DNA of 20,000 nucleotides, from assembly GCF_004010195.1 (NCBI RefSeq), contig NC_057717.1, positions 104,053,302 through 104,073,301 of the forward strand, read 5' to 3'. The notes under the pieces were generated by a model that saw only the letters and a list, made by a program, of their open reading frames with translations, had not been told where the DNA came from and did no database searches. This DNA is from Chiloscyllium plagiosum. Lineage: Eukaryota. Of this stretch, positions 900 to 19,639 are shown piece by piece. Numbering within the stretch: the stretch's first letter is position 1; each line of letters opens with the position of its first letter. Made by a program: the position numbers and the translations under genes.

Positions 900-1826
900 T
901 CACCCCCCACCCCACAACCCCCACAAACCCTCCTTCCCCTCTTCACAAGCCCACCCCCCCCACACACAAACCCTCCTGCCCCTCCCCACACAGACCACCC
1001 CCCACACAANNNNNNNNNNNNNNNNNNNNNNNNNNNNNNNNNNNNNNNNNNNNNNNNNNNNNNNNNNNNNNNNNNNNNNNNNNNNNNNNNNNNNNNNNNN
1101 NNNNNNNNNNNNNNNNNNNNNNNNNNNNNNNNNNNNNNNNNNNNNNNNNNNNNNNNNNNNNNNNNNNNNNNNNNNNNNNNNNNNNNNNNNNNNNNNNNNN
1201 NNNNNNNNNNNNNNNNNNNNNNNNNNNNNNNNNNNNNNNNNNNNNNNNNNNNNNNNNNNNNNNNNNNNNNNNNNNNNNNNNNNNNNNNNNNNNNNNNNNN
1301 NNNNNNNNNNNNNNNNNNNNNNNNNNNNNNNNNNNNNNNNNNNNNNNNNNNNNNNNNNNNNNNNNNNNNNNNNNNNNNNNNNNNNNNNNNNNNNNNNNNN
1401 NNNNNNNNNNNNNNNNNNNNNNNNNNNNNNNNNNNNNNNNNNNNNNNNNNNNNNNNNNNNNNNNNNNNNNNNNNNNNNNNNNNNNNNNNNNNNNNNNNNN
1501 NNNNNNNNNNNNNNNNNNNNNNNNNNNNNNNNNNNNNNNNNNNNNNNNNNNNNNNNNNNNNNNNNNNNNNNNNNNNNNNNNNNNNNNNNNNNNNNNNNNN
1601 NNNNNNNNNNNNNNNNNNNNNNNNNNNNNNNNNNNNNNNNNNNNNNNNNNNNNNNNNNNNNNNNNNNNNNNNNNNNNNNNNNNNNNNNNNNNNNNNNNNN
1701 NNNNNNNNNNNNNNNNNNNNNNNNNNNNNNNNNNNNNNNNNNNNNNNNNNNNNNNNNNNNNNNNNNNNNNNNNNNNNNNNNNNNCCACAAACCCTCCCAC
1801 ACCTCCCCACACAGCCCACCTCCCTC
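900..1826. repeat. C-rich ~42-bp minisatellite spanning an assembly gap
   Basis: Unit CACAAACCCTCC..CCTCCCCACACAG(A/C)CCACC occurs at ~922 and ~965, and again at ~1786 after the N run, so the array probably continues through the gap. Confidence 0.7.
1010..1784. other. Assembly gap (775 N)
   Basis: Run of N. Confidence 1.
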
Positions 1827-1904
1827 CAAAGACCTGCAGCTGCAGAATCCTCTTACTCCAGAGAACTGAACACCTCCTCCAGGCTCAGAGACTTCATTGT
1901 ATGG

Positions 1905-2005
1905 AAGGGTCTCTCGACCCGAAACAGTAACTGTGCTTTCTCTCTCCACGGGTGCTGCCAGACCTGCTGAGCTTTTCCAGCAATTGCTGTGTTTTTGTCT
2001 TTGTT
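1905..2005 (+). mobile_element. Penelope-like terminal repeat fragment (family B) with decayed hammerhead
   Basis: GGGTC-tctc-GACCC-GAAAC...GCTGCCAGACCTGCTGAGCTTTTCCAG is homologous to the reverse-strand copies at 5531-5650 and 5755-5905. The CUGANGA box is lost. Confidence 0.65.
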
Positions 2006-2149
2006 TGTTTGCGAGAGATTGAGAGCTCAGGCAGTGCTGAGCTGTCAGAGGCTGCTGTCCCGACCAAAGCCGGTGTCCAGCCTCTCAGGCAGAGGGAGAA
2101 AAATCCTTCAGGGTGAGCCTGAAGGAAAGCAGCGCCTCGTTTCCTGGTC

Positions 2150-2285
2150 ATGATGTGGAGGAGCCAGTGTTGGGCTGGGGTGGGCAGAGTTTAAAAATCA
2201 CACCGCACCAGCTTAGAGTCCAACAGGTTTATTTGGAAGCACTAGCTTTCGGAGCGCTGCTCCTTCATCAGGTGGTTGTTGTATG
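2150..2285 (-). mobile_element. Penelope-like terminal repeat fragment (family A) carrying a hammerhead motif
   Basis: Homologous to 5950-6040 (GGAG..GTGTTGG.CTGGGGTGG...AAAATCACA...AGTCCAACAGGTTTA.TTGGAAGC); contains a hammerhead core on the minus strand. Confidence 0.65.
2240..2274 (-). ncRNA. Minimal type-I hammerhead ribozyme motif (apparently intact)
   Basis: Minus strand reads CAC CUGAUGA A GGAGC agc GCUCC GAAA GCUA GUG. Stem I CAC/GUG, core CUGAUGA, stem II GGAGC/GCUCC, GAAA, palindromic AGCU as stem III, cleavage triplet CUA (cut between 2243 and 2242). Confidence 0.75.
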
Positions 2286-2489
2286 ATTTTTAACTAGTTT
2301 CCTGGTGTCCTTGCCAACAATTCTCACTTGAACCGGATTATCAAGTTGTTGAATGTGTGAAGTTGCAGTTTTACATGTCATGATGTAAGATTCTACAAGA
2401 ACAAAAGCTGACAGACTGAGACACACTGTTTGAAATAGTTTGTTGTTTGTGGAATCTTGCTGCATGACAATCACCTTCCCTATGTCACA

Positions 2490-2570
2490 ACAGGGCACGA
2501 CCCTTGAAAAGGTATTTAATTGTGGAATGTAGGAATTCGGTGCTACATGAATGCAAGTTCCTTCTGCTGA
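2490..2570 (+). mobile_element. Decayed L2/Deu-SINE-type 3' tail fragment
   Basis: GGTGCTACATGAATGCAAGTT resembles the GGTGCTATATAAATGAAGTT tail at ~3640. Confidence 0.4.
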
Positions 2571-3239
2571 TCCATGACTGTTTTGGATCTGACAAACCTG
2601 CCCCCCCGCCCCCCCCACGGTGAACTGTGCTTGCTGTCCGCAGAATTCGCTTTCATCCTGGTGAGCTGTGCTCAAATCTGCGCCCACCGTCAAAGCAGAA
2701 AATCCCAATGTCAACAGTCACGCTGCAGTTACAGCTGCATGTCTGTGGGGGAGGTGTTGGGGCTCCTTCACCGCCAGAGGCGTCAAACCCAGCAATTTGC
2801 TGGTGAGAGAGACCAGGGGAGTTTTCCACACCCCAAAAGGCGTGGGGTGAAAGTACAGAGTATGTGCTTGTCTGTACTAACTGATTTAGTGTTGGGTCTG
2901 TAATCTGTATCTTTTTGATGGAGGGGAGAGGGGGGGGGGGATGGAAGGGTGTAATCCTCCTCCCGTTGACAGGCCACTGGGTGAAAGTTTGATTCTATTG
3001 AATCTGAAGTGCACCCCGTGAGCATGATAAAACTCTGCTGTCCCTGTGTAAACACACTTACTCCCCTTTCCTCCTCTTCCCCCCCCCAGCCCCTCGCTGA
3101 TTTATTTGGCCCTTGGTCAGACAATCTCTCAATGTTCACACTTTCATCAAATTCATTTCTCAAAGCAAGCCCCAAAGTGCATGCAGTTGGAAGGATTTAC
3201 AAACTGAGTGAATGTTGAGAGAGGAAGTGATAAGCTCCC

Positions 3240-3675
3240 TAAACATTCCATTGCTTTTCCAGCAGTTTTTTTGTTAACACCTTCACTCTTGTGTTTGAAC
3301 TCCTGCATGGCCTTCTTGCTCCCCACCCCCCCCCACCCCCTGTCCCCTTTATAATCTCCTCTGGCCCCACAGCCCTCTGAAATATCTTCACTTTTCTACC
3401 TCTGGCCCCTTTTTTAGCATCCCCTTGCTTTAATCTCTCCATTATTACTGCCCGTGCATGAATTTCAAATGCTGGCATTCCCTCCCTACACTCCTCCACC
3501 TCCCCCTGCCTCACTTTCCTCCTTTTTAAGGACACTTCTCAAACCCTCTTCCAACAAGTTTTCAATCACTGTCTCCTTATGTGCTGCGCTCTGTTTCTGT
3601 GTTGCTGTGAAGTGCCTCTGGATTGTTCATGACATTTGAGGTGCTATATAAATGAAGTTCCAGTGCTGTTGTTAT
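3240..3675 (+). mobile_element. Degenerate L2-clade LINE 3' end (ORF2 C-terminus + 3' UTR)
   Basis: Remnants of the L2 ORF2 C-terminus (..LHGL.., W.SLP, FK..LK) and the tail GTGAAGTGCCT...GGTGCTATATAAATGAAGTT..GTTGTT. Confidence 0.65.
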
Positions 3676-3756
3676 CTTACTAACCGTTAAATGGTCCCAA
3701 GTATTGGAAGCAGCTACAGATTTGTTTATCTGCGTTGGATCCATTCTAAGGCTCAG

Positions 3757-3833
3757 CCTTTTAATGGATCAATACAATCAGTAGGAAAAAAAGGGAAGTA
3801 AGGTTTAGGAAAATATTCTGAGAGAGAGAGAGA
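3757..3833 (+). repeat. Diverged direct repeat, copy A (partner 4729-4810)
   Basis: CCTTTTAATGGATCAATACAATCAGTAGGAAAA...AGGAAAAT..(GA)n aligns with 4729-4810. Confidence 0.8.
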
Positions 3834-4260
3834 CAAAGGTCTTCACAGAGGGAAGGGTATGGACAGAAAGGAAATAAAGACAACTTTGTAAAGAGTGTCA
3901 GGGAAACAGAATAGAATGAATGAACAAATGAAAGAAACTGAGATGGCGGAAAGACCAAAGAAATGCAGAAGAATATCAAGTGAAGTTTACAAAAACTGGC
4001 CAAGTACACAGAGCAGAGTAAACAACCTGAAGCGATGAAGTGCAAAGGGAGTGAATGGCAAAAAAAAAGCTAAACAGACAGGGCAGGGAAATTGGCGCGC
4101 ACTCCGAGACACACACACATGCTGGTAGATGCAGACACACAAACAGAGAGACACATACTGATCGACGCAGAGAGAGAGAGACACATACAGACAGGGTATG
4201 GGAACCCATGCATACACCCACTGACATACTCGGAGACATGTGCAGAAACGCATACAGGCA

Positions 4261-4689
4261 CACAGAGAAGCAGACACACTCACAGCTATACGCACAGAGA
4301 AGCAGACACACTCAGCTATATGCACAGAGAAGCAGACACACTCAGCTATACGCACAGAGAAGCAGACACACTCACAGCTATACGCACAGAGAAGCAGACA
4401 CACTCACAGCTATATGCACAGAGAAGCAGACACACTCACAGCTATATGCAAGAGAAACAGACACACTCACAGCTATATGCACAGAGAAACAGACACACTC
4501 ACAGCTATACGCACAGAGAAGCAGACACACTCACAGCTATACGCACAGAGAAACAGACACACTCACAGCTATACGCACAGAGAAACAGGCACACTCACAG
4601 CTATACGCACAGAGAAGCAGACACACTCACAGCTATACGCACAGAGAAACAGACACACTCACAGCTATACGCACAGAGAAACCGACACA
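4261..4689. repeat. 32-bp minisatellite (about 13 units plus a partial)
   Basis: Unit GCACAGAGAA(G/A)CAGACACACTCACAGCTATA(C/T), with 30-31 bp variants; 13 GCTATA cores counted. Confidence 0.95.
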
Positions 4690-4728
4690 TGCACACTCCG
4701 AAATAGGCACGCACACACACGTCAGGAT

Positions 4729-4810
4729 CCTTTTAATGGATCCATACAATCAGCAGGAAAAGAGAGGGGAAAATGAGGCTCAGGAAAATCTTTTCTAGAG
4801 AGAGAGAGAG
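4729..4810 (+). repeat. Diverged direct repeat, copy B (partner 3757-3833)
   Basis: CCTTTTAATGGATCCATACAATCAGCAGGAAAA...CAGGAAAATC..(GA)n. Confidence 0.8.
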
Positions 4811-4877
4811 AAACCTCTGAGCTGCCTAATTCAGCCACTGTGCAACTTGAGTTTCCTTCATGATCCACAGTGAGCTG

Positions 4878-5018
4878 ACTGACCATCCCTAGTTGCCCCT
4901 CAGAAGGTGGTGGTGAGCTGAGTTTGTGAACTGCTGAAGTCCAGGGGGTATAGGGACACCCGCAAGTGCTTAGGGAGGGAATTCCAGGATTTTTGACCCA
5001 GCAACAATGAAGGAATGA
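4878..5018 (-). mobile_element. LINE 3'-terminal fragment (family sharing its tail with the SINEs at 14905 and 17121)
   Basis: The reverse strand encodes a decayed ..GSKSWNSLP..HHHLLRGN* type end. GGGCAACTAGGGATGG matches GGGCAATTAGGGATGG at ~17398. Confidence 0.6.
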
Positions 5019-5021
5019 TCA

Positions 5022-5510
5022 TATGAGCATACAAACTTCAGAATCAAGAACAGGATCGGGCCATTTAGTGCTTTGGCCCTGCTATACCGTTCAGTAGGAC
5101 CATGAAGTATTCTGGTGTAACCTCAAACCTGCCTCACGGCCTATCCCTGATAGCCTTTCACCGCCCGCTCCCCCCCCCCCAAGCTTAACAAGAATCCATC
5201 TATCTCTGCCTTAAACATATTGGGAGAATCCCACTTTCACCAATACTTTCAGGAACAGACTTCCCAACATTCATCACTTTCTGAGAGAAAGCCTTTTGCC
5301 TCATCTCTGTTTTAATTGGCCAACCTTCAATTATTAAACAGTGACCCCTAATTCCAGACTCTCCGATAGCAGGAAGCATCCTGTCCATATTCACCTGGTC
5401 AGGACCCCTCAGGATCTTATCTGTTTCAAACAAGACACCCTGCCTCCAATGGATACAGGCCTGGCCTGTCCACTCTTTCCTCATAAGGTACCCGTCAATT
5501 CCAGGTTTGA
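5022..5510 (-). mobile_element. CR1 LINE 3' fragment
   Basis: ORF 5200-5484(-) gives ETDKILRGPDQVNMDRMLP...RGHCLII...TEMRQKAFSQKVMN, a typical decayed CR1 ORF2 C-terminus, followed by 3' UTR. Confidence 0.85.
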
Positions 5511-5530
5511 GTCAAGAAACAGCTTTTATG

Positions 5531-5650
5531 AACAAAGTCAGAAATTTGTTGGAAAAGCTCAGCAAGTCTGGCAGCGTCCGTGGGAAGAAATCACAGTTAA
5601 CATTTCGGGTTGAGTGACCCTCCTTCAGAACTGATAGTAGCTGGGAAAAT
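5531..5650 (-). mobile_element. Penelope-like terminal repeat fragment (family B)
   Basis: Homologous to 1905-2005 and 5755-5905; carries a hammerhead-like motif. Confidence 0.65.
5594..5633 (-). ncRNA. Hammerhead ribozyme-like motif (slightly decayed)
   Basis: Minus strand CAGUU CUGAAGG A GGGUC acuc AACCC GAAA UGUU AACUG. 5-bp stem I; substitutions in the core (A9>G), stem II and the stem III palindrome (CpG>TpG). Confidence 0.55.
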
Positions 5651-5754
5651 GTTGCTTTATGTACAGAAATCCTGAAGGAGACAGAGGAGCAGAACTACTT
5701 GAAGGTGGACATGCCTAGAAGAAATGTCGTAGTGAGTTAAATACTAAATAAAAA

Positions 5755-5905
5755 CCAGTAGAGAACTGTGGATGCTGTAAATCAGGAACAAAAACAGAAA
5801 TAGTTGGAAAAGCTCCGCAGGTCTGTCAGCATCTGTGGAGAGAAATCAGAGTTAACGTTTCAGGTCCAGTGACCCTTCCTCAGAGTAATGATAGCTGGGG
5901 AAAGG
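5755..5905 (-). mobile_element. Penelope-like terminal repeat fragment (family B), tandem to the previous copy
   Basis: Same orientation as and homologous to 5531-5650, offset 255 nt. Confidence 0.65.
5849..5888 (-). ncRNA. Hammerhead ribozyme-like motif (core intact, stem I weakened)
   Basis: Minus strand uuacu CUGAGGA A GGGUC acug GACCU GAAA CGUU AACUC. Intact CUGANGA and GAAA, 5-bp stem II, palindrome AACGUU, GUU triplet. Confidence 0.6.
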
Positions 5906-5949
5906 TCTTTTATGAACGGCTTCCTATCTAATAATATCTCCCTCAATAA

Positions 5950-6040
5950 TTTGGAGATGCCGGTGTTGGACTGGGGTGGACAAAGTTTAAAAAAATCACA
6001 CAACACCAGGTTATAGTCCAACAGGTTTAATTGGAAGCTA
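5950..6040 (-). mobile_element. Penelope-like terminal repeat fragment (family A), truncated at the hammerhead
   Basis: Aligns to 2153-2240; homology stops at TTGGAAGC (6038). Confidence 0.65.
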
Positions 6041-6139
6041 ATAGGAATAACCTCCTTATTCCTGGATTCCATTCTTTTCCTGATGAATGAATGATAAAAT
6101 TCCATTAAATTATTATTGGCTGGAACTGCATTTGAAACT

Positions 6140-6702
6140 GTTTGAGGTCCCGCTGCATCTCAAAGCTTAGCAATCTCCCCTTACCGTATTTAAATAATAC
6201 ACTACGTTTTATTCTTTCTGCTGAAGTAGGTAGTTACATTTTTTTCCTGCTAAAATACATTTTTCCGTGCGTGCTCCATCCATTTGGTTTGATTTATTGT
6301 TGTCACGTGTACCTGAGTACAGTGAAACGTTCAGTTTTGTGAGCAGTACAGGCAGATCATAACAAACAAGGACACACAGACCATGGGTGCTCAGACAGAG
6401 CGAGGGTTGCAGGGTTATAGCTAAGCAGGAGGTGCACTATTCAAGATCAAGAAATTGTCAATATCTTTTTGTAATGTCCTTGTGTGCTCGTCACAATTTA
6501 CTTTCTGACCTATCTCTGTGTCATTAGTAAACTTGGCAGTCATTCATTCAGTGTGTATATCCAGAAAATGTTATATCAATTGCAGAGCTGTGTTTTTTAC
6601 TTGCTGCAATAGTTTTCAATGTGGTATCTTACCAAGTGCCTTTTGGAAATCTGGAAATTGAACATCTATTGGTTCCCCTTTAACCACAGCATGTTATCTT
6701 CA
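6140..6702 (-). mobile_element. Old CR1 RT-region fragments, interrupted by another LINE 3' end (~6285-6450); resumes at ~7010-7035 after a SINE
   Basis: Reverse-strand remnants of CR1 RT motifs (GEPIDV..DFQKA, KF.NDT); the sequence continues as AAAAACTCCAGGAGATTGG after the SINE. Confidence 0.55.
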
Positions 6703-7010
6703 TGGTGGCTCAGTGGTTAGCACTGCTCCCTCACAGCACCAAGGTCCCAGGTTCAATTCCAGCCTCGGGTGACTGTCTGTGTGGAGTTTGCACGTTCTCC
6801 CCGTGTCTGCGTGGGTTTCCTCCGGGTGCTCCGGTTTCCTCCTACAGTCCAAAGATGTGCAGGTTATGGTGGATTGGCCGTGCTAAATTGTCCGCAGTGT
6901 TAGGTACATCATTCAGAGGGAAATGGAACTGGGTGGGTTACTCTTCAAAGGGTTGGTGTGGGCTTGGTGGGCCGAAGAGTCTGTTCCCACACTGTAGGGA
7001 ATCTAATCTA
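6703..7010 (+). mobile_element. HE1-like tRNA-derived V-SINE
   Basis: A box TGGCTCAGTGG 6706-6716, B box GGTTCAATTCC 6750-6760, V-domain GTGTGGAGTTTGCACGTTCTCCCCGTGTCTGCGTGGGTTTCCTCCGGG, CR1-like 3' tail ending (AATCT)2. Confidence 0.9.
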
Positions 7011-7117
7011 AAAAACTCCAGGAGATTGGTGCAACTTAGAATGGTGATTGGCCTGCAGGGGAAAGGAGAGAGATTTTTTTTAAAAAGAAAGACATGGGGC
7101 AAATTTTCCAGGAGTGG

Positions 7118-7332
7118 TTTTCCCCTGTTCCTGCTACCCTCGTCCTTCAAGAAAGTAGAGATCGTGGGTTTGGAAAGTGCTGTGAAAGGAGCTTCCCATT
7201 TGTTGCTGTGCATCTTGTAGACAGTAGACACCGCAGCCACTGAGTGTTGGTGCTGGAGGGAGTGGATGCTTGGGGATGTGGTGCCAGTCAGGTGACTGCT
7301 TGGTCCTGGGTGGTGTCAAGCTTCTAGAGTAT
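7118..7332 (-). mobile_element. LINE ORF2 C-terminal fragment (same family as 4878-5018)
   Basis: Reverse strand gives ..KLDTTQD..HPL..AAVSTVYKMHSN.. Confidence 0.65.
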
Positions 7333-7384
7333 TTCGTCATGGTCATTGTGATCAGTCCAGTCACAGGTTACTGGTAACGTAGAT

Positions 7385-7685
7385 CACGTAAAGGCACCAT
7401 TGTCCCACTCAACAGAGAGATGACTGGTGATAGTTCAACCTGAGGATTGAGGTTGTGAAAGGGAGTCTTTTGTGGTTACCTCAGCTAGTGTGGGATTTGA
7501 ACCCGGAGTTAGTCATCGAGATGTACCGCATGGAAACTGACCCTTTGGTCCAACTTGTCCATGCTGACCCGGCATCCCAATCTGACCTTGTCCCATCTGC
7601 CAGCATCTGACCCATATCCCTCTAAACCCTTCCTATTATCAACATCTCTCTGCATCACAAACCAGTCTCCAGCTAATTGATTCCC
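7385..7685 (-). mobile_element. tRNA-derived SINE split by a CR1 3'-UTR insertion (7510-7638)
   Basis: Reverse-strand B box GGTTCAAATCC (~7493-7503); the head appears to resume at ~7640-7685. Confidence 0.55.
7510..7638 (-). mobile_element. CR1 3'-UTR stub
   Basis: Homologous to 7959-8084 and 18120-18225 (AGTCAT..GGAAAC.GACCCTT.GGTCCA..GTCCATGCTGACC..TATCCCTC.AAACC). Confidence 0.8.
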
Positions 7686-7714
7686 TAGTAAAGTGGGTAA
7701 TATAGCAAAAACTT

Positions 7715-7945
7715 GTACAAGCAGCAAGGCAATGAATGATCCGATAATCTGTTTTTAAATGTTGATTTCAGGATAAATATTGGCCAGGACATTGGTGAGA
7801 GAATTCCCCCCCTTCCCCCCTTCTTTTACAAATAACACCATCTGCCTCCGAGATAGTGCCTTGGTTTAATCTTCCATTTGAAAGACAGCCCCTTGTGACA
7901 GTGCAGCACTCCTTCAGCGTTGCTCCATCAGGAGTGTTAGCCTCT
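7715..7945 (-). mobile_element. Deu-domain SINE (SacSINE1/AmnSINE1-like), decayed
   Basis: GGATAAATATTGGCCAGGACA..GAGAATTCCCC..CTTGGTTTAAT..GAAAGAC..GACAGTGCAGCACTCC is the reverse complement of the DeuSINE central domain as recalled. Confidence 0.75.
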
Positions 7946-7958
7946 GGTGGCGCAGGGA

Positions 7959-8084
7959 AGTCATAGAGTCATACAGCACGGAAACAGACCCTTCGGTCCA
8001 TCCAGTCCATGCTGACCCTAATCCCAAACTAAACCAGTCCCACCTGCCAGCTCCTGGCCCGTATCCCTCCAAACCTTTCCTGTT
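7959..8084 (-). mobile_element. CR1 3' end, left piece of an element split by the 8085-11820 insertion
   Basis: Ends AAACCTTTCCTGTT. The uninterrupted paralog at ~18209 reads AAACCTTTCCTGTT|CATG, and CATGTATCC resumes at 11821. Confidence 0.85.
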
Positions 8085-10124
8085 GTGACTCTGAAGGGAA
8101 GTGGGGGGAGAATAGAAAAGTGCTAGTGGTAGGAGAGTCAGTAGTTAGATGGGTGGTCTTGGATGGGATTCCCGGAAGCTACGTTGCCTCCCAGGTGCCA
8201 GGGTCCGGGATGTCTCTGATTGAGTCTACAAGATGCTGAAGGGGGGAGGGTGAGCAGCCAGAAGTCATGGTGCACATTGGCACCACTGGCGTAGTCTGCA
8301 AAAGGATGAAGGTCTAACAAGTGATTTCAGGGAGTATCAGGGATAAGCAGAGTAGTAATCTCAGGATTGCTACCGGTACCACGTGCGAGTGAGGCGAGGA
8401 ACAGAGAGCGACTGCAGCTAAACACGTGGCTAACAGGGCTGGTGCAGGAGGGAGGGCTTCAGATACATAGATCATTGGGGTACCGTCTGGGGAAGGTGGG
8501 ACCTGTACATGAAGGACGGGTTGTACTTAAACTGGAGGGGCACTAGTGTCCTGAATGGGAGATTTGCTAGAGCTCTTCGGGAGGGTTTAAATTAGTTTGG
8601 CAGGGGGATGGGAATCCGAGCTACAGATCAGAGGAGAGGGTAATTGGTGAACGGACAGAAATAGAACGCAGAGAGTCTGGCAGGAAGGATACACAGTTGA
8701 TGGGTTAGAGTGTCTGTTTCAATGCAAGGAGTGTCAGGAATAAGAGATGAACTTACACCATGGATCAGTACTTGGAAATACGATGCTGTGGCCATAATGG
8801 AGACATGGATTTCACTGGGGTAGGAACAGTTGCCGGATGTTTCAGGGTTTAGGTCTTTTAAAAACAATGAGGGGAGTGAAAGTGGAGGGGGATGGCATCA
8901 CAGCTGCAGAAAAGAAGGTTGTTGAGGAAGAGTGGACGTCAGTAACAGGAAAGGAACAGTCACCGAATTTTTCTATAGACGCCCCAATAGCAGCAGAAAG
9001 ATGGAAGGACAGATTGGATAAAAGATCTTGGAGAGGTGCAGATGTAACAGAGTTATTGTCACGAGTTCCCCAATATTGATTGGAACCTCCTTAGTGCAGA
9101 TGTTCTGGATGGAGGCAGTTTTTTGTCAAGTTTTTCCAGGAGGGATTCCTGACTCAATATGTCGATAGGCTGACTGGGGGGGGGAGGCGGCCATATTGGA
9201 TTTGATGCTAGGCAATGAACCAGGTCAGGTGTCAGATCTCTCGATGGGAGGGCATTTCGGTGACAGTGACCACAACCACCTCACCTTTTCCATTGTCATG
9301 GAGAGGGATAGCAGTAGACAGTGTGGGAAGCTATTTAATTGGGGGAGGGGAAATTATACTGCGATTAGACAGGAGCTGTGGAGTATAAATTGGGGACAAC
9401 TGTTTTACAGGAAAGGCACCACAGAAATGTGGAGGCTGTTGAAGGAGCGCTTGTTGTGAGTGTTGGATAACCTTGTCCCACTGAGACAGGCAAGGAATGG
9501 TAAAGTGAAGGAGCCTTGGATGACAAGACAAGAGGGGCTTCTCTTCAAGAGAAAGAAGGAAGCTTACTTAAGATTAATGAGGCAAAGATCTGGCACAGCT
9601 TTAGAGGATTGCAGGATAGCTAGGAAAGAACTTCAAAAGTGGACTGAGGACAGCTAGGAGGGGCACGAGAAAGCCTTGGTGGGAAGGATTAGAGAAAACC
9701 CAAAGGCGTCCTTCACGTAGGTGAGGAATAAGAAAATGGTCAGAGAGGGTAGGGTCTATCAGGGATGGTGGAGGGAACTATGAAGAGGTAGGGGAGGCCC
9801 TAAATGAGTTTTTTGCTTCAGCATTCACTAGAGAGAGACCTTGTTAATAGTGAAGACAGCATGAACCAGGTTAATAGGCCTGAACGATTGATATTAAGGA
9901 AGTGGATGTGCTGAAAATGCTGAAGAATCAAGATAGATGGTCGGACTGAGATATCTGAGGTTACTACGGGAAGCGAGGAATGAGATTGCTGTGCCTCTGG
10001 CGATGATCTTTGCATCCTCCCTCTCCACGGGAGTAGTACCAGCTGATTCGAGGGAGGCAAATGTTCTGCTGTTCAAGAAAGGGAATAGGGAAATCCCTGG
10101 GAATTACAGACCAGTCAGTCTTAC

Positions 10125-10415
10125 TGGTCCAAAGATGCGCAGGTTAGGGTGAATTGGCCATGCTAAATTGCCCGTAGTGTTCCAGGGTGTGTAGGTGCAT
10201 TAGTCAGGGGTAAATGTAGGATATTAGGGTAGGGGAGTGGGTCTGGGTGTGCTAAATTGCCCGTAGTGTTCCAGGGTGTGTAGGTGCATTAGTCAGGGGT
10301 AATGTAGGATATTAGGGTAGGGGAGTGGGTCTGGGTGGGTTACCCTTCAGAGGGTTGGTGTGGACTTGGGCCAAAGGGCCTGTTTCGACACTCTAGGGAT
10401 TCTGTTTCTATTCTA
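10125..10415 (+). mobile_element. 5'-truncated HE1-like SINE inserted into CR1 ORF2, with internal 89/88-bp tandem duplication
   Basis: Homologous to 6847-7010; flanked by TTAC (10121-10124 and 10416-10419); duplicated units 10161-10249 and 10250-10337. Confidence 0.85.
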
Positions 10416-11495
10416 TTACGTCTTTGGTAAGGAAAGGATTCTGAGAGATAGGATGTATGACTATTTGGAAAAACATAGTTTGATTAAAGATAGTCAGCAT
10501 GGCTTTGTGAGGGGCAGGTCATCCCTCCCAAGCCTTATTGATGAAGGTTGAGCAGTGGATGTGGTGTCAGTGGATTTCAGTAAGGTATTTGATAAGGTTC
10601 CCCATGGTAGGCTCATTCAGAAAGTTAGGATTGGGATACAGGGAAATATGGCTATCTGGGTACGGAATTGGCTGGCCAAAAGAAGACAGCGAGTGGTAGA
10701 TGATGTAAAGTATTCCGACTGGAGCTCGGTGACCAGTGGTGTCCTGCAGGGATCTGTTCTTGGGCCTCTGCTCTTTGTAGTGTTTGTAAATGACTTGGAT
10801 GAGGAAGTGGAAGGCGGGTTAGTAAGTTTGCCGATGACACAAAAAGGTCGGTGGTGTTGTAGACCATGTCGAGGGCTATTATAGGCTGCAATATGTCATT
10901 GACACAATGCAGAGCTGAGCTGAGAAGTGGCAGATGGAGGTCAACCTGGTCAAATTTGAATGCTGAATACAGGGTTAAAGACAGGATTCTTGGAAATGTG
11001 AAGGAACAGTGGGATCTTGGGGTCCATGTACATAGATCCCTCAAAATTGCCACCCAAGTTTATATGGTTAAGAAGGCATATGGTGTTTTGGCCTCATTAA
11101 CAGGGGGATTGAGTTTAAGAGCCGTGAGGTTTTGCTGCAGCTCTACAAGTCCCTGGTGAAATCACACTTGGAATATTGTGTCCAGTTCTAGTCACCTCAT
11201 TATGGGAAGGATGTAGATGCTTTAGAGCGGGTGCAGAGGAGATTTCCCAGAATGCGACCTGGATTAGAGAGCATGTCTTATGAAGAGAGGTTGAGTGAGC
11301 TCTGGTTTTTCACACTGGAGAGAAGGAAGGGAGGTGACTTGGTTGGGGTGTACGGGGTAATGAGAGGCATAGATAGCCAGAGATTTTCCCTAGGGCAGAA
11401 ATGGCTGTCGTGAGGGGTCATTATTGTGAGGTGATTGGAGAGAGGTAGAGGGGAGATGTCAGAGGTAGGTTCTTTATGCAGAGAGTGGTGGGTGC

Positions 11496-11779
11496 ATGGA
11501 ATGCACTGCCAGCCGGTGGTGGTGGAGCTGGAGACATTAGGGACACTTAAGCGACTGCTGGACAAGCACATGGACGGCAGTAAATTGAGGGGTGAGTAGG
11601 TTAGGTTGACCTTAGATTGAGATAAATGCTCAGCACAATGGAATGCACTGCCAGCCGGTGGTGGTGGAGCTGGAGACATTAGGGACACTTAAGCGACTGC
11701 TGGACAAGCACATGGACGGCAGTAAATTGAGGGGTGAGTAGGTTAGGCTGACCTTAGATTGAGATAAATGCTCGGCACA
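11496..11779 (+). repeat. 142-bp tandem duplication in the CR1 3' end
   Basis: 11496-11637 and 11638-11779 differ at 2 positions by eye. Confidence 0.95.
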
Positions 11780-11820
11780 ACATCGTGGGCCGAAGGGCCT
11801 GTACTGTTCTATGTTCTACT

Positions 11821-12244
11821 CATGTATCCATCCAAATGTCTTTTAAACATTGTAATTATACCCATGTCCACCACTTCCTCACGGGGTGGGGGGTGAAGAG
11901 AGGAGGGAGGAATTTGCCTCATGTCTTTTTAAAATTCCTCTCCTCTCACCTGTTTAAAAATATGCCCCTTAGTCTCGAAATTTCCCATCCTAGGGAAAAG
12001 ACAACTGCCACTAACTCTATCTGTAGATCTCATTATTTTATAAATTTCTATTGGGTCGCCCCTCAACCTCCTACTCTCCAGTGGAAAATAGTCCCTGCCT
12101 CTCCTTTTTAGCTCAAACCTTCCATTCCTAGCAAGGTCCTGGTAAATCTCTTCTGAACCCTCTGCAGCTCAATAATAATCTTTCTATAACGGGGCGGCCA
12201 GAAATGGACTTGGTACTCCAGAGGAGGCCTCACTAACGTCCTGT
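11821..12244 (-). mobile_element. CR1 ORF2 C-terminus, right piece of the split element
   Basis: Colinear with the paralog at 18223-18560; reverse strand gives decayed LVRPPLEYQVHFWPP..LRATQ*KFIK.. Confidence 0.85.
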
Positions 12245-12689
12245 CCTGGGAGATTGACGGATGTCACAGCTATTTCCTGAAGTCAGCAACATTGCAATCT
12301 CCTGCTCAGATCAACAGGAAAGCCAACACTGGACTGAGCTCAGTGTTTCCATTTTTAACCTGCTCTGGCATATGAATGTCAACATTTAAACAGATAAAAT
12401 AACCAGGAGTAGGTACTCGTGTGTTAAATGGAGTGGATGCAGAGAGTCAATAAAGGGGATCTGTTTCCAGTAAAGTGGGGGAGGGGGGGGGGGGCATGAG
12501 TGTCTTAACTAATGGACAGTGTTTTCAGGAGATTAATAAAAACACCAGAGTGATCAGGACAATTTTTAGTTTCTGACTAGCAATGAGTTTTCTGAAAAGT
12601 GGTTCCAGAAGGTTCAATAACTGTACCAAAAAGCAAAATTTTGCTGGTCTATGGCCAGTCGGCGTGTGTGTTGTGTGTAACGTTGTCAC

Positions 12690-12812
12690 AGCCAGAGGTC
12701 TACGGCAGATCAAAAGTCCCTTTGGCCCTTCGGTGCTGCACTGGTCAAAAACAGCCACCTACCTCTTCTAACCCCACCTTCCAGCACCTGGTCCAAACCC
12801 TTGTATGCCTTA
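12690..12812 (-). mobile_element. Decayed CR1 3'-UTR stub
   Basis: AGAGGTCTACGGCA..CCCTTTGGCCC..TCTAACCCCACCTTCCAGCACCTGGTCC resembles other CR1 tails in the window. Confidence 0.5.
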
Positions 12813-12889
12813 GTGAATGGGTTAGCTCTTTCAAAGGGCTGGGGCAAATACTGTGGGCAGAATGGCTTACTACTTTGCATGTTTAACGT

Positions 12890-13360
12890 TGGAAGCAGTT
12901 CAGAGATGGTTCACTTGACTGATCCCTGCCACAAAGGGGTTTATCTCATGAGGAAAAGGTGGACAGACAGTGTGTCTTGGCACTTAGAGTGAGTGGCGAT
13001 CTTCTTGGGGTGTGTACCTTCCTGAGGGGAGTTGACAGGCTGGATTCTGGGACGATGTTTCCCCTTCGTGGAGATAAGACTGGGGGGAGAGCACTTTGAG
13101 GGTCAGAATAATGTTGTTGCTAATATTTGGAAATTTATGCCAGAAAGCAGCGTGCAGGGGACAACGTCTGAGTTCACAGCTGATCCAAAACCTTGCATAC
13201 TGTGGTGGGGCTCAGCGCAGAACTCCAAAAGTACATGGGTGCACAGGTTTGAGGTGTTATTGGCAGTTGAGTTAGACAGGATTTTAGCTGTAAGTCAGTC
13301 AGAAGTCTTCAGAAATAGTAAGGAATTTGAAGTTAAGATCATGATTAGGTGAGCTGTTCC
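12890..13360 (+). mobile_element. Highly decayed CR1 3' fragment
   Basis: GCAGTTCAGAGATGGTTCACT..TGATCCCTG..TCTCATGAGGAAAAGG..GGCGATCTT..CCTGAGGGGAGTTGACAGG (remnants of VQRRFTRLIP..SYEERL..GDL..ILRG.DR). Confidence 0.6.
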
Positions 13361-13409
13361 AATTCCGATAGAAAGCATCATGTCTGCATTCAGTCTCGAA
13401 GCATTTTAA

Positions 13410-14400
13410 CTTAGTGCCAACTCCTCTTTCCCCAAAACCCTGTGTTTTGTTTCAGTTTAAACAACCACCCAATGAGCTTTTGAAGGCCTCAGCTGAACCT
13501 ACCTCCACCACGGTGCATTCCACTCCCTAACCACTCGCTGTGTGAAAACATTTCTTTTCCTCATTGAACGTTTGGGGTTCCTTTTACAAATTACTGTCAA
13601 ATTGTGTGCTCTGACTCTCAATCCTTTTCCAAGAAAGAACATGTTCTTCCCCCCCCCTCTACTTTGCCCAAAAGCCTCTGACTTTGAACATCGCTATCAC
13701 ATCTCCTCTTCGCCTTCTCTCCTCTCCAATTTTCCCGAATACCTGAAGTTTCTCATTCCCAGAATTATTGTCATAAACCTCTCCTACAATGTGTTCACAT
13801 CCTATCTAAACTATACAATCTTCCAGTAGAGAGCTAGCTAGTGATCTGTGTAAGTTAATTGTAACTCCCTGCTCTGTACTCTAAGCTGCTCTAGTTAATT
13901 TTAGCAACTCTTTCTGTCTGTCCTGGAACTTGTGATCACTTACTTTTGTATCCACACCCAGGTCCCTCTGTCCCTGCACCCCCTTTAGAATGGTTGCCTC
14001 CCAAAGTCTGCCCATGTTCCTCGCAGTAAAATGCATCACCTCACACACTACCCAACATTGAAGTTCACCTACCACCCACCTGCCCCCTCCAGCAGGGCAC
14101 CTTTGGAATTTGGCAGTGATTACAATGATCTTAAGCAACAAAGTTTGAAATTATCCCCAGTGCACTGGACCGAGATTATTAATGGATTTCAGGAATATAT
14201 AAATCCCATTAGCGATCCCTGGAGAATTCCACTAAAAGCTTTCATCCAGCCCGACCAATACTTATTAACTATTAATCTGTTTCCTCTCCCTCAGGAAATG
14301 TGTACCAATATTGTTGCTACTAACCCCTTTAACCCATCAGTTATCACTTGCCTCTGATCTCTGCTGTCTAGCACTGTATTGAATGCCTTTTGGAGAGGAT
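13410..14400 (-). mobile_element. Old CR1 fragment (RT C-terminal half to 3' end)
   Basis: Reverse-strand remnants CEVMHF, ILKGVQGQRDLGV, FFTQRVVREWNA. Confidence 0.7.
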
Positions 14401-14454
14401 GCAGATCTCATCGATGGAAAATTCTCAAGGGGCCGAATGGCCACCTCCTTTCTT

Positions 14455-14760
14455 CTAATTACAATCCCTACAGTGTGGGAGCAGGCCATTTGGCCCATCG
14501 AGTTCATACTGTCCGTCTGAAGAGCATCCAACCCCCTGTAACCCTGCATTTCTAATGGCTAACCCACCTAGCCTGCACATCCCTGGACACTGGACAATTT
14601 AGAATGGCCAATCCACCCTAAACTCCACGTCTTTGGACTGTGGGAGGAAACCCACGCAGACATAAGGAGAATGTGTAAACTCCACACAGTCGCCTGAGGC
14701 TGGAATCAAACCCAGGTCCCTGGTATTGTGAGGCAGCAGTGCTAACCACTGTGCCACCCC
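14455..14760 (-). mobile_element. HE1-like V-SINE
   Basis: Reverse complement of GGTGGCACAGTGGTTAGCACTGCTGCCTCACA..GGTTTGATTCC..V-domain..CR1-like tail. Confidence 0.9.
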
Positions 14761-14904
14761 TCATCACTATAAGATAGTGCACAGGGGGACTTAAACCCCC
14801 AGTCAATAAAATCTTCATAGAAGGTACAGTTGAGTTAAACTTGAAACCATTGCTGGTCCTGTGGATATTTCTTTGCACACCAACAGTTAACTGACAGTTA
14901 ACCC

Positions 14905-15156
14905 ACTCTAAGTCTGGGATTAAGAGTCTAATGATGACCATGAATCCATTGTTGATGGGGGGGGGGGGGGGGGGGGGGGGTGAGGGGGGAAAGCCCATTT
15001 GATTCACTATGTCCTTCAGGGAAGGAAACAGCCATCCTTACCCACATGTGACTCCAGACCCACAGCAATGTGGTTGACCCTTAACTGCCCTCTGGGCAAT
15101 AAATGCTGGGCCCAGCCAGTAACGCCTGATCCAGTGAATGAGTTTTTTAAAAAAAT
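14905..15156 (+). mobile_element. 5'-truncated tRNA-SINE (same family as 17121-17468) containing a G24 run
   Basis: TCACTA.TGTCCTT.AGGGAAGGAAA..CATGTGACTCCAGACCCACAGCAATGTGGTTGAC..GGGCAATAAATG is shared with 17290-17425; poly-G 14957-14980. Confidence 0.85.
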
Positions 15157-15704
15157 CACTGCTGTAGGATCGTGAAACAACATCACCCACCACTCAAGCC
15201 TCAGTCTGTCCAGCACGGCTCCACCTCACCCAGTGACCCTGCGTTCAGAAAAGTAAACGTTCAAGTGGTTGAAATGAGCTGGCTCAGGCTGACTGAAGCA
15301 GGCCTTTTCCTTCTATTGAGAGGGGGTGTCACTGGCAAGGCAGGTTCCTTATAGTCTGGGAGTGTGAGTGCTCCATAAACATGGTGTATAGACTCTGCCA
15401 GGGAGTAGTTAGACCCAGGAGCTTGATGACCCATCCCAGTCCATGCTGCCTCCCAGTGGAGATGAGTTGGAATTACAGTATGGCTGGGCTGGGAACTTGT
15501 GTACCATACACAGGAACTCCAATCTGACGGCTCATTCATGTAGATGGTGGTTTTTTTTCTCTTCGCTGATTTCCAGCTGTATCCTGTCTTCATCACAGGC
15601 TCAGCCACCAAGTCGCTCCCCGCATCCCCGCGGGTCACTTTCACCCCAAACCTTCGACTCTCAACACAGCCAGCTATTCGGGTCAGGGAGGCATCACAGT
15701 TTCC

Positions 15705-15782
15705 CGTAGGCAGCATTCCAAACCCCACGACCGCTCCCGTCCAAATGGGCAAGGGCAGCAGATACATGGGGACACCACTCCC
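15705..15782 (+). mobile_element. Short LINE fragment (family of 7118-7332)
   Basis: CAGCATTCCAAACCCCACGACC..AAGGGCAGCAGATACATGGGGACACCAC is homologous to the reverse complement of ~7118-7180. Confidence 0.55.
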
Positions 15783-15857
15783 ACACAGAGCGGGAGAATC
15801 TGGGACACATTTCCCCCTGTGAAGTCGACACCAGCAATGTGTTTAAGGGGACGGTTT

Positions 15858-16598
15858 TAGAACAAACAAGGAAACTTTAGAGCCCAGGAACAGGCCCTTT
15901 GGCCTTCCAAGCCTGAGCTGATCCAAATCCACTGTCTAAGCCTGTCGCCCAATTCCTAAGGATCTGTATCCCTGTGCTCCACACCTACCCATGTATCTGT
16001 CCAGATGCACTTTAAATGAATCTACCGTGCCTGCCTCTGCCACCTCTGCTGGCAACGTGTTCCAGACACCCACCACCCTCTGTGTAAAGCACTTGCCGCC
16101 TGTATCCCCCTTAAACTTTCACCTCTCACCTTGAACGTGTGACCTCTTGTTATTGAATCCCTCAACGTGGGGGAAAGGCATATCTCTATCTATCCTGTCC
16201 ATACCCTTCATGATTTTGTAGACCTCAGTTAGGTTCCCCCCCCCCCACCACCCCCATCTTTTTTTATATAATGAAAACGATCCTAACCTACTCAGCTTCT
16301 TCATAGCTAGCACCCTCCATACCAGGCAACATCCTCATAAAATCTCTCTGCACCCTCTCCAAAGCATCCATATCCTTTTGGTAATGTGGCGACCAGAACT
16401 GTACACAGGTATTCTAAATGTGGCCGAACCAACGTCATGTACAATTTTAACATGACCTGCCAGCTCTTATACTAAATGCCCTGTCCGATGAAGACGAGCA
16501 GAGCATATGCCTTCCTGACCACTCTATCCACCTGTGCAGCCACCTTCGGGGTACAATGGACCTGAACTCCCAGATCTCTCTGCCCATCAACTTTTACC
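15858..16598 (-). mobile_element. Relatively young CR1 3' fragment
   Basis: Reverse strand LGVQVHCTPKVAAQVDRVVRKAY..LVRPHLE..VQFWSPHYQKDMDALERVQRDF..NLTEVYKIMKGMDR, then 3' UTR. Confidence 0.9.
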
Positions 16599-16904
16599 TC
16601 AAATCCCGGAAGGGAGTGAAACTCTGGTTACGTTCCAGAGTATATCCATCACAGCTGTGTCTTCCCATCACTTCAAACAGAGTTTTATAGTTATCTATAG
16701 CCACACGAGAGAAACTAATTAAAGGTTAGTGTTGACACGAATCTCCTGCCCAGAGAACTCTCCCCAGCGGCTACTTGTAAACTGGAAAAGTTATATTTAA
16801 GAGTATAATCCCCTTCTGTTAGTGAGTAACAGGAAAACAGTTGGTAAAACACAAATGCATGGCCAGTTTCCAAGACTAAAACCTCGGGTGAAAGGGTCAC
16901 TTCG

Positions 16905-16928
16905 CACACACACACACACACACACACA
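16905..16928. repeat. (CA)12 microsatellite with degenerate CA-rich flank to ~17000
   Basis: Direct reading. Confidence 0.95.
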
Positions 16929-17120
16929 GGCCTTACACAAACAATCCTCCATCACGCGTGCACACACTCCCCTCAGACACACACACTCACGCGCTCACTC
17001 TTACAAATCACCTGCAGATTTCGGATCATGTGCAGTTTATGTTTTCTTTCTGGAACCTGGCTGTATTGAGACCAGTCCGCAGTTTCTCAGGCTAGCTCAG
17101 TGCAACGGGGACAGTGAGAG

Positions 17121-17468
17121 AATGGTAGCACAGTGGTTATATAGCTGGCCATGAACCCCAGGAACGTGAAGTAATCGGGTTCAAATCTCACCACAGCAGC
17201 TGAAACTTGAAATTGAGTTAAATAAATCTGGAATTGAAACCTAATATTGACCAAACAGAAAGCTACCGTTGACTATTGTAAAACCCCTTCTGGCTCACTA
17301 ATGTCCTTTTGGGAAGGAAATCTTCCATCCTTACCTGGTCTGACCTGCATGTGACTCCAGACCCACAGCAATGTGGTTGACTCCTAACTGCCCTCTGGGG
17401 CAATTAGGGATGGGGCAATAAATGTACTAGCTAGCGATGCCCACATCCTGTGAATGTTTAAGAAAAAA
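17121..17468 (+). mobile_element. tRNA-derived SINE with LINE-shared 3' tail
   Basis: A box-like TAGCACAGTGG 17126-17136, B box-like GGTTCAAATCT 17178-17188, body shared with 14905-15156, tail GGGCAATTAGGGATGGGGCAATAAATG. Confidence 0.8.
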
Positions 17469-17478
17469 AGGGAGGAAG

Positions 17479-17784
17479 TTAGATTACTTACAGTGTGGAA
17501 ACAGGTCCTTTGGCCCAACAAGTCCATGCTGACCCGCAACCCACCCAGACCCATTCCCCTACATTTACCCCTTCACCTAAATCTACAGGCAATTTAGCAT
17601 GGCCAGTTCACCTAACCTGCACATTTTTGGACTGTGGAAGGAAACCGGAGCACCCGGAGGAAACCCACGCAGACACGGGGGGAATGTGCAAACTCCACAC
17701 AGTCAGTCGCCTGAGGCGGGAACTGAACCCGGGTCTCTGGCGCTGTGAGGCAGCAGTGCTAACCACTGTGCCACCGTGCCGCCC
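17479..17784 (-). mobile_element. Full-length HE1-like V-SINE
   Basis: Reverse strand starts GGGCGGCACGGTGGCACAGTGGTTAGCACTGCTGCCTCACAGCGCCAGAGACCCGGGTTCAGTTCC; V-domain with CpGs retained (young copy); tail GTAAGTAATCTAA. Confidence 0.92.
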
Positions 17785-18118
17785 AATGGGGTGGGGATCG
17801 GAGAGGGAGAGTCAGCTCCTCTAACTGTGTAGCACTCCCTCAGGAATGTCGGACTAGATTGAGGTCGGAGAATGAAATCTCTCGAATGTGCTACCTGAGG
17901 AGGGATTGAGGTGAAATGACGTGGAACTGGCTCAGAGTGAAGCTCTCAACACCACAGACCTGATTTCTCAACTCCTGTTAGACATCACATTTTATTGCAT
18001 TGCTCTGAAAAACTTTTCAAAGTCTAAGCGATTGCTGACAGTTGGCCCTTAAGCGAACAACTTTCTGGATGTTGTTGTTCGGTGTCTTTGTCTTGTAAAA
18101 ATTAACTTAACCCTTTAT

Positions 18119-18560
18119 GGAGTCATACAGCACAAAAACAGACCCTTCATTCCAACCAGTCCCAAACTAAACGAGTCCCTCCTGCCTGCTCCAGGCCCAT
18201 ATCCCTCCAAACCTTTCCTGTTCATGAACTTATCCCTTTATAACTTGACCCACGTTTGCACTTCCTCTGGAAGTTCATTCCATGCATGGACCACCCTCTG
18301 TTTTAAAAGTTGCCCCCATGTCTTTCGTAAATCTCTCTCCTCTCTTTAAAAATATGCCCCCCAGTCTTGTAATTCCCCTACCCTAGGGAACAGATACCTG
18401 CCATTCACTGTATCTATCCCCCTCACGATTTTATAAACCTCTATAAGGTCACCCCTCAGCCTCCTACGCTCCTGTGAAAAATGTCCCAGCCTCCTCTTAT
18501 AACTCAAACCCTCTATACCCAGCAACATCCTGGTAAATCTCCTCTGAACCTTCCAGTTTA
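18119..18560 (-). mobile_element. CR1 3' fragment
   Basis: ORF 18346-18528(-) MLLGIEGLSYKRRLG..RRLRGDLIEVYKIVRGID; paralog of the split element 7959-8084/11821-12244. Confidence 0.9.
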
Positions 18561-18639
18561 TTTCTATTAATGCTATGTTAATATAATGTTACATAAAATG
18601 TATGTACTGTAATAAAGAATTTGTGTTGATATTATAATG

Positions 18640-18664
18640 TATCAATTTTCTTTTCCCTCAGTAG
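18640..18664 (+). promoter_or_regulatory. 3' splice site with tandem NAGNAG acceptors
   Basis: Polypyrimidine tract TTTTCTTTTCCCT followed by CAG (ends 18661) and TAG (ends 18664). Confidence 0.8.
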
Positions 18665-18710
18665 GTGCATCAATGGATTTGTATTGGCTATGGACATGAG
18701 GAGATAGATA

Positions 18711-19568
18711 ATGGCTCAATATGGGAACATGACAGTCCTCTATCAAGGCTTTGTTAATGGCAACAGCAGCTCCCCGGCCAACAGCAGCCTCCTTCACAGT
18801 AGCCTATCCCAGAACAACACCAACCCTGTACTGTGTCCATGGAAGCCTACCAACTCGTCCATGGCTGTCGCTATTCCCAGCTTCTCAATGACTCTGGGCG
18901 CCTTGTCCAACATCATCGCCCTCGTCATCCTCATCAAATCCTACGCCCGGTTCCGCAGGCGTTCCAAGGCCACTTTCCTGCTCTTCGCCAGCAGCCTGGT
19001 GCTGACTGATTTTGTCGGGCATGTCATCCCTGGCGCACTGGTCCTGCGGCTCTACTCTGAGAACATCGTCAGCGCTGGGCCCATGTGCCAGTTCCTGGGC
19101 GGCTCCTTGGTGTTCTTTGGCCTGTGCCCGCTCTTCCTGGGCTGCATCATGGCGATCGAGAGGTGTGTAGGCGTCACCAAGCCCCTGCTCCACTCAGCCG
19201 TGGTGACCCCCACCAGGAGTAAGCTGGCCGTGCTCTGCCTTTGGCTGACGGCCGGGTTCGTCGCTTTCCTGCCCATCCTGAACTTCGGCCGATATGGCAT
19301 CCAGTGCCCAAGGACCTGGTGTTTCATCCGCCTGCGAGGCCCTGCCCAGCACTGGACAGAGGATGCCTTTGCCCTGCTCTTCTGTCTCCTGGGAGTGTTG
19401 GCCCTGTTGCTCTCACTGGTCTGCAACACTATCAGTGGAGTGACCCTCATCCAGGCCAGGATTAAGAAGCAGAATTGTAACCGCAGAGCAAAATCCCACG
19501 ACATCGAAATGGTCATCCAATTAATTGGGATCATGATGGTGTCCTGCATCTGCTGGAGCCCTCTTCTG
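18711..19568 (+). CDS. PTGER1: Prostaglandin E2 receptor EP1 subtype, main coding exon (N-terminus to end of TM6, 286 codons; partial CDS)
   Basis: EP1-diagnostic motifs TFLLF..SL..TD..GHVIPGALVLRLY, VFFGLCPL.LGC.MA.ERCVGVT.PLLH, Q.P.TWCFI, HD.EMV.QL.GIM.VSCICWSP. Strong Kozak context (A at -3, G at +4) with an in-frame upstream TAG. Donor CTG|GTGGGT at the TM6 intron position conserved in prostanoid receptors (phase 0). Confidence 0.92.
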
Positions 19569-19639
19569 GTGGGTATTGGCATTACAGTGCAGCATGTCAT
19601 CAGTGGGGAGGGCAGGGGAGGGCAGGTGGTGGTGGTGAG

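Follow-up and report, generated by a model that had tools for sequence, protein, structure and literature searches.

A direct pair of decayed minimal hammerhead motifs in Chiloscyllium plagiosum, probably the remnant of a collapsed Penelope-like element insertion

Introduction

Minimal hammerhead ribozymes occur within pseudo-LTRs of metazoan Penelope-like elements (PLEs) (Cervera and De la Pena 2014, PMC4209133). In the sections of that paper on which we draw, the motifs have a type I core with an extra base after position 9 and a G at position 10.1, a palindromic stem III that is commonly CGUU and a stem I of 4-5 bp. They are mostly dispersed and single, with some inverted pairs, and where they form a direct pair they stand ~3 kb apart around an ORF. 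Even intact motifs of the PLE type cleave weakly or with the assistance of protein, according to excerpts of two reports (PMC4209133, PMC11167929). The insertions of endonuclease-bearing PLEs, in the extracts used here (PMC3846280, PMC8557442, PMC2377424, PMC8969392, PMC11167929), show direct pairs of terminal repeats, 5' truncation, a short flanking duplication, microhomology at junctions, an AT-rich target and a variable 3' end. The relevant sections of PMC3846280 report duplications 8-10 bp long, partial tandems, junctions with microhomology, and deletions, and those of PMC11167929 describe internal initiation of PLE reverse transcription.

Non-LTR retrozymes form the other close comparison (Cervera and de la Pena 2020, PMC7229834; Li, Clavereau and Pollet 2026, preprint 10.64898/2026.07.22.740005). 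In the portions of these sources considered here, they are full tandem units of 170-400 nt, low in GC, in which two or more successive units each contain a complete type I hammerhead; the monomer is highly self-paired, and linear and circular RNAs of unit length are abundant. The preprint reports retrozymes as derivatives of PLE terminal repeats, including in one chondrichthyan genome, and its chondrichthyan families (mean 363 bp) may include the family described below.

We analysed a 20,000-nt window of the Chiloscyllium plagiosum genome, in which an earlier note had pointed out two hammerhead repeats in tandem on one strand. The locus resembles the PLE motifs in its type I core, extra base, G at 10.1, CGUU stem III, short stem I and mostly single, sometimes inverted, dispersal; it differs from them in that both of its motifs are damaged and lie as a direct pair 255 nt apart rather than ~3 kb apart around an ORF. 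It has each of the features listed above for endonuclease-bearing PLE insertions, except that no ORF is left between the repeats and that the duplication measures 11 bp rather than 8-10 bp. With non-LTR retrozymes it shares two direct type I hammerheads within the 170-400-nt range, low GC and a PLE-related origin. Unlike these, it has no full-length repeated unit, its hammerheads are minimal and incomplete, and the stretch is not strongly self-paired as the published circles are. The words shark, Callorhinchus and Leucoraja are absent from the part of the PMC4209133 supplement that was searched, and we found no shark-specific description of the family in the open literature.

Results

The minus strand of the window carries two minimal type I hammerhead motifs, one whose core begins at 5883 (copy A) and another whose core begins at 5628 (copy B). 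The motif of copy A (5854..5883) has the core CUGAGGA with all core letters intact, followed by one extra A and a 5-bp stem II (5875-5871/5866-5862) whose closing pair, 10.1-11.1, is G-U. After stem II come GAA and ACGUU, giving the GUU triplet, the palindromic ACGU of stem III and the AACGUU palindrome at 5859-5854; the 5' arm of stem I (5884-5888) is degenerate. The motif of copy B (5594..5633) has the core CUGAAGG from 5628, in which position 9 is G instead of A, and continues with the extra A, a 4-bp stem II, GAA and AUGUU, with a U at 15.2. It retains a 5-bp within-copy stem I, CAGUU/AACUG (5633-5629/5598-5594), which is predicted to form in the isolated 51-mer. When compared with the consensus of the PLE motifs (core CUGANGA, extra base, stem II starting with G, GAAA, palindromic NNU-H), copy A agrees letter for letter except for the U at 11.1, and copy B fails at position 9. 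The short stem I of about 3-5 bp that characterises PLE motifs is present as 5 bp within copy B and as 4 bp from B to A, and is lost in the 5' arm of A. The offset between the copies is exactly 255 nt across 5543-5629 and 5798-5884, and the putative cut sites at 5854/5853 and 5599/5598 would delimit 255 nt.

These observations bear out the description given in the earlier note, namely two homologous minus-strand repeats at a spacing of 255 nt, with an intact core and AACGUU palindrome in one copy, a 5-bp stem I in the other and damage in both; its assignment to the minimal, dimer-type class is supported by the motif layout. A minimal-hammerhead descriptor applied to positions 1786-20000, outside the N gap, gave two matches without a core mismatch (copy A and a motif of a second family at 2271) and three when one mismatch was allowed, the third being copy B. 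Across 100 dinucleotide shuffles the same descriptor gave means of 0.0 and 0.01 and maxima of 0 and 1, respectively, which confirms that the pair is real and far above chance. An Rfam search at E<=1 returned no hammerhead match and one unrelated weak match only, and the folding z-scores of the isolated motifs were near zero and uninformative in either direction.

When hammerheads act as a dimer, each core pairs with the cut strand of its partner copy and stem I forms across the copies, a topology with which Fig. 1 of PMC4209133 is consistent. A G at core position 9 would be expected to cripple cleavage. Site 1, in which the core of B would act on the cut strand of A, has four stem I pairs, but its core position 9 is G and its stem III contains a U-G pair at 15.2-16.2. 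Site 2, in which the core of A would act on the cut strand of B, has an intact core and only one of the first four stem I pairs. Since the 5-bp stem I of copy B is a within-copy pairing and the stem I of a dimer is cross-copy, neither site is complete, and release of a 255-nt RNA needs both cuts. Folding predictions agree: a forced partial dimer reached -45.0 kcal/mol against a free minimum of -63.9 kcal/mol, a cost of 18.9 kcal/mol, and the inner cross-copy stem I pairs have predicted probabilities below 0.001. The doubt that the earlier note had cast on present activity is thus upheld, and on this modelling the hammerhead pair is most likely inert today.

A retained cis-acting dimer ribozyme that still processes a present-day RNA would account for the survival of every core letter in copy A and for a 3' junction common to a second species. 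We consider this highly improbable: apart from the broken cross-copy sites, with their negligible inner stem I probabilities, the pattern of substitutions between the copies (16 transitions and 7 transversions, with 5 changes at CpG) resembles neutral decay, and the nearest identified exon, which starts at 18711, is on the opposite strand. Furthermore, even intact motifs are weak, only one of nine Xenopus dimers having cleaved in vitro in the part of the preprint drawn on here (10.64898/2026.07.22.740005). The exon in question is a prostanoid receptor coding exon on the plus strand, running from 18711 to ~19574, with its best match to EP1 (E 1e-78); a tandem array of a 36-38-mer lies just behind it at 19672-19996.

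Homology between the copies is limited to 5786-5906 against 5530-5652, a stretch of 123 alignment columns that is 79.7% identical; the global alignment has 94 identities and 23 substitutions. The duplicated part therefore makes up only ~120-130 of the 255 nt, at 79-80% identity. The intervening sequence (5653-5761) resembles neither side: against the DNA upstream of copy A, 277 of 300 shuffles score equally well, and against the DNA downstream of copy B, 63 of 300. Tandem Repeats Finder reported no array at the block. The tandem unit of ~255 nt that the earlier note implied is not borne out by these comparisons.

To place the two copies in their family, we aligned four public runs to 5401-6150 at 80% likeness, and three of these gave 71,103, 80,816 and 11,127 contigs. 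Taken as a contrast only and not as copy number, the summed contig depth in run X2 was 10 on the single-copy flank, 1.2e5-3.2e6 in the bins of copy A (5751-5900), 1.4e4-3.6e5 in those of copy B and 498-1,736 in the spacer. The hammerhead module is thus up to 10^5 times as deep as the single-copy flank and the spacer 50-170 times, a contrast of about a thousandfold. Many contigs start with the letter that directly precedes the core (5884) and stop at 5762, with unrelated, A/T-rich flanks beyond. The common form of the family is therefore a dispersed stub of ~123 nt. Copy A (5762..5906, minus strand) can accordingly be described as a 5'-truncated terminal-repeat stub in which 5762-5884 is the high-copy module, and copy B (5534..5654, minus strand) as a second stub, whose tail ends ~27 nt, in register, before the usual family end. 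Several contigs join two opposite-strand family copies at 5883-5884, an arrangement that can be likened to the inverted PLE ends described in PMC3846280, as excerpted here. In the contig counts and the opposite-strand joints, the family is dispersed, high in copy number and often single or inverted, as PLE hammerheads are. The many family contig starts and inverted joins at 5883-5884 lie upstream of the cut site and not at it.

The alignments also indicate which of the letters in A and B are unusual. At 5622, core position 9 of copy B, 78% of the aligned depth has the canonical A9, whereas at 5862, position 11.1 of copy A, only 37% has C, so the G-U pair of copy A may be a common state of the family rather than private damage. 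A further run (X17), from another organism and possibly of RNA, contains the family, but its depth is zero in the single-copy bins 5901-5925 and 6051-6150, and it is thus uninformative for this locus. Pattern scans for family copies found none in viral contigs and none in either of two scans of metagenome contigs. A single pattern match in a bacterial genome was dismissed as chance, the core and flanks being absent. We also rejected the reading of joints that skip ~255-262 nt as deletions or circles; these are best read as single family copies that fit partly A and partly B.

The spacer (5665..5761, minus strand) is a low-copy repeat that continues the tail of copy A at other loci and may be the start of the element body. 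Three paralogous contigs run from the copy A tail into it (5668-5814, 5678-5814 and 5683-5847, with 21-26 differences each), and all three leave the window sequence at 5668-5683, before copy B, with 173, 604 and 67 unmatched letters beyond. These statements hold for the pieces listed, 24 of 165,925 contig pieces and 15 of 379 joints, and two of the three paralogues may represent a single locus in two species. No paralogous piece among those listed bridges the spacer and copy B, and a bridging copy broken by a large indel could lie beyond them. As the paralogues are attached to an A-type tail, the spacer is best understood as the element's own continuation behind that tail; the joint near 5665 seems to be specific to this locus. 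Unrelated unique DNA, which the earlier note had named as the alternative for this spacer, is not what was found.

A repeated spacer that is joined to an A-type tail elsewhere also speaks for a retrozyme-like origin, in which a short, non-autonomous, low-copy mini-element of 255 nt (a PLE terminal repeat with ~95 nt of body) would have been excised by dimer hammerheads, circularised and reverse-transcribed about 1.5 times round into the site in one event. The 373-nt block between the flanking repeats described below corresponds to ~1.5 such units, the size and GC content (42%) fall inside the published low-GC range of 170-400 nt (PMC7229834, in the part consulted), and an origin of retrozymes from PLE terminal repeats is what the preprint reports. 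Against this, the listed paralogues stop short of copy B, no tandem array was detected, and minimal hammerheads are assigned in the accessible part of PMC7229834 to PLEs and not to canonical retrozymes. None of three structural retrozyme features appears at the locus. The full tandem unit is wanting, with ~120-130 of 255 nt duplicated; neither hammerhead is complete, given the G9 of copy B and the missing stem I of copy A; and the 255-nt stretch, folded as a circle, reaches -45.9 kcal/mol against -42.2 +/- 4.0 for shuffles (z -0.91), so it is not unusually self-paired, a property that decay may have erased. The relic of a unit releasing a ~255-nt RNA that the earlier note proposed is, for these reasons, unlikely.

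The block is flanked by an exact 11-bp direct repeat, with an upstream copy at 5907..5917 (GTTCATAAAAG on the minus strand) and a downstream copy at 5523..5533, also on the minus strand. It is the longest exact word common to the zones 5900-5950 and 5495-5545, and when 50,000 zone pairs of that size were drawn at random away from tandem arrays, only 59 shared an 11-mer. Both 11-mers map to one position of a LINE copy in the window, 12898-12908. The right flank (5305..5533, minus strand), a decayed LINE ORF2 remnant, aligns to LINE copies from 12898 and from 11231, and in each case 0 of 300 shuffles were as good. The left flank (5918..5937, minus strand) is the probable continuation of this LINE; its alignment, 5937..5907 to 12879..12908, is modest, with 8 of 300 shuffles as good. 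Continuity at the protein level is weak (264 of 1,000 shuffles for the left flank and 130 of 1,000 for the right), a far-left protein match lies at an unexpected position (28 of 1,000), and DNA alignments to the LINE beyond the neighbouring second-family stub are not significant (55 of 300 and 83 of 300). The target is assigned to the LINE class because an RVT_1 match at 10555-10884 lies just upstream of the second LINE copy (from 11231). The LINE may be of CR1 type.

The exact repeat around the 373-nt block is a probable target-site duplication. The junction on the side of copy B is also found in a second species, in a contig on 5413-5569 with 3 differences. No empty target site was seen in the data, which counts against the target-site-duplication reading. 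Of the earlier view that the two copies form one unit, what stands is that a single bounded block is probable; a recurring unit of ~255 nt is not seen.

Whether the block arose in one insertion or in two steps turns on the same boundaries. Within the PLE reading, a single event is slightly favoured over two separate insertions at one target, or the local duplication of one, and the latter are nearly as probable. A single outer duplication, with no exact inner repeat above 6-7 nt around the joint, argues for one event, as does one minority letter that A and B share (5804/5549), at which 88% of the aligned depth differs. The two-step account involves the same class of element as the collapsed-PLE explanation and differs from it only in the number of events: a second stub would have inserted at the same cut site, giving the order repeat, A, spacer, decayed repeat, B, repeat, or recombination between the flanking repeats would have duplicated the locus, after which the second copy lost ~126 nt.

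Several observations lend this account weight. A look-alike of the 11-bp repeat (5655..5664, minus strand) occupies, with respect to B, the position that the true copy has with respect to A, and 27 of 5,484 19-nt zones do equally well. The outer 11-mers are identical although A and B diverge by 19.7%, which has a chance of 0.09-0.15 on one clock. Furthermore, B shares two letters with a third copy, C, that A lacks (5594 and 5579), a stub of the second family lies ~30 nt from the block, and PLEs tend to insert into or beside existing copies, according to the excerpted review (PMC6765202). The look-alike would then be a decayed third copy of the duplication; alternatively it is native sequence that served as junction microhomology. 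A consensus of the loose ends of the family, compared by hand, matches 5630-5659 at 22 of 30 letters and is B-like at least to 5658, so the look-alike is at least partly native, and no exact inner repeat longer than 6-7 nt marks the joint. Overall, we regard two steps at one target as a plausible but less probable history.

Copy C (1903-1994, plus strand) is a more decayed member of the first family, with its core destroyed. It faces a stub of the second family (2149-2296, minus strand) tail to tail, and no clear flanking repeat was found around it, the best being 6 nt. The second-family stub has its core at 2271, with the core intact, a 5-bp stem II, an AGCU stem III and a 3-bp stem I, and is more intact than either copy A or copy B. 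It is flanked by an exact 10-bp direct repeat (2139-2148 and 2297-2306), and a flanking repeat of this size around a second stub in the window counts in favour of the PLE reading. The stub close to the block (5946..6038, minus strand) is a headless member of this second family, ~30 nt upstream of the block and 83.9% identical to 2150-2240; its other copies continue into the hammerhead of the second family from loose ends at 6037-6038. It has the highest depth of the aligned stretch, up to 1.1e7 in run X2. Contig joints link the two families, from 5884 to 5991 and from 6035 to 5795, and the two may often lie side by side.

Elsewhere in the window, tandem arrays occur at 4261-4689 (a 32-mer, 13.6 copies), 10161-10337 (an 89-mer, 2 copies) and 11496-11780 (a 142-mer, 2 copies at 99% identity, either a recent duplication or an assembly artefact). 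A dispersed short repeat with copies at 6701-6866, 14592-14758 and 17575-17778 (83-89% identity) is probably a SINE, and an N run, an assembly gap at ~1010-1785, is flanked by similar C-rich repeats.

Discussion

The best explanation of the block at 5523-5917, and one in which we have considerable confidence, is that it is a decayed remnant of PLE activity, made up of two terminal-repeat stubs in direct order and almost no element body. Between the stubs lie ~95 nt of the element's own downstream sequence, and the whole sits within an 11-bp duplication inside an older LINE. The 5'-truncated, partial-tandem terminal repeats and the short target-site duplication that are typical of PLEs are both present, with modest support from the left flank. 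Membership in the PLEs is assigned by motif and architecture; no gene for the telomerase-like reverse transcriptase or the GIY-YIG endonuclease that define PLEs was linked to the family here, which counts against the assignment, and a Pfam search of the ORFs adjoining the block gave no match.

From the motifs, the flanking repeat, the copy-number profile and the broken cross-copy stems, all of which are observed, we infer the following steps of insertion. A PLE endonuclease would have cut an AT-rich target, and reverse transcription would have started inside the tail of copy B, where 3-4 nt are shared with the target. Copying would then have passed through hammerhead B into a second segment of tail and hammerhead, and ended where a short match to the target lies just upstream of hammerhead A. 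Nearly all of the element body would have been lost, either because copying jumped between templates or through a later deletion. The distance of 255 nt would then be a by-product of the collapse and not the length of a unit. The ancestral motifs presumably acted like other PLE minimal hammerheads, by weak cleavage assisted by dimer formation or by protein.

Should the unlikely mini-element reading be true, the block would preserve, as a genomic fossil, the copying of more than one unit from a circle, a step that has been proposed but not shown for PLEs, and the mini-element would be a retrozyme caught at birth. On the collapsed-PLE explanation, the locus matters little beyond being one decayed data point from a very large family, whose kind has been described since 2014. 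Short, duplication-bounded direct pairs such as this one would mark the points at which PLE reverse transcription begins, jumps and ends. Counting them genome-wide would address a question that the literature consulted leaves open, namely whether circular templates or template jumps give rise to PLE tandems.
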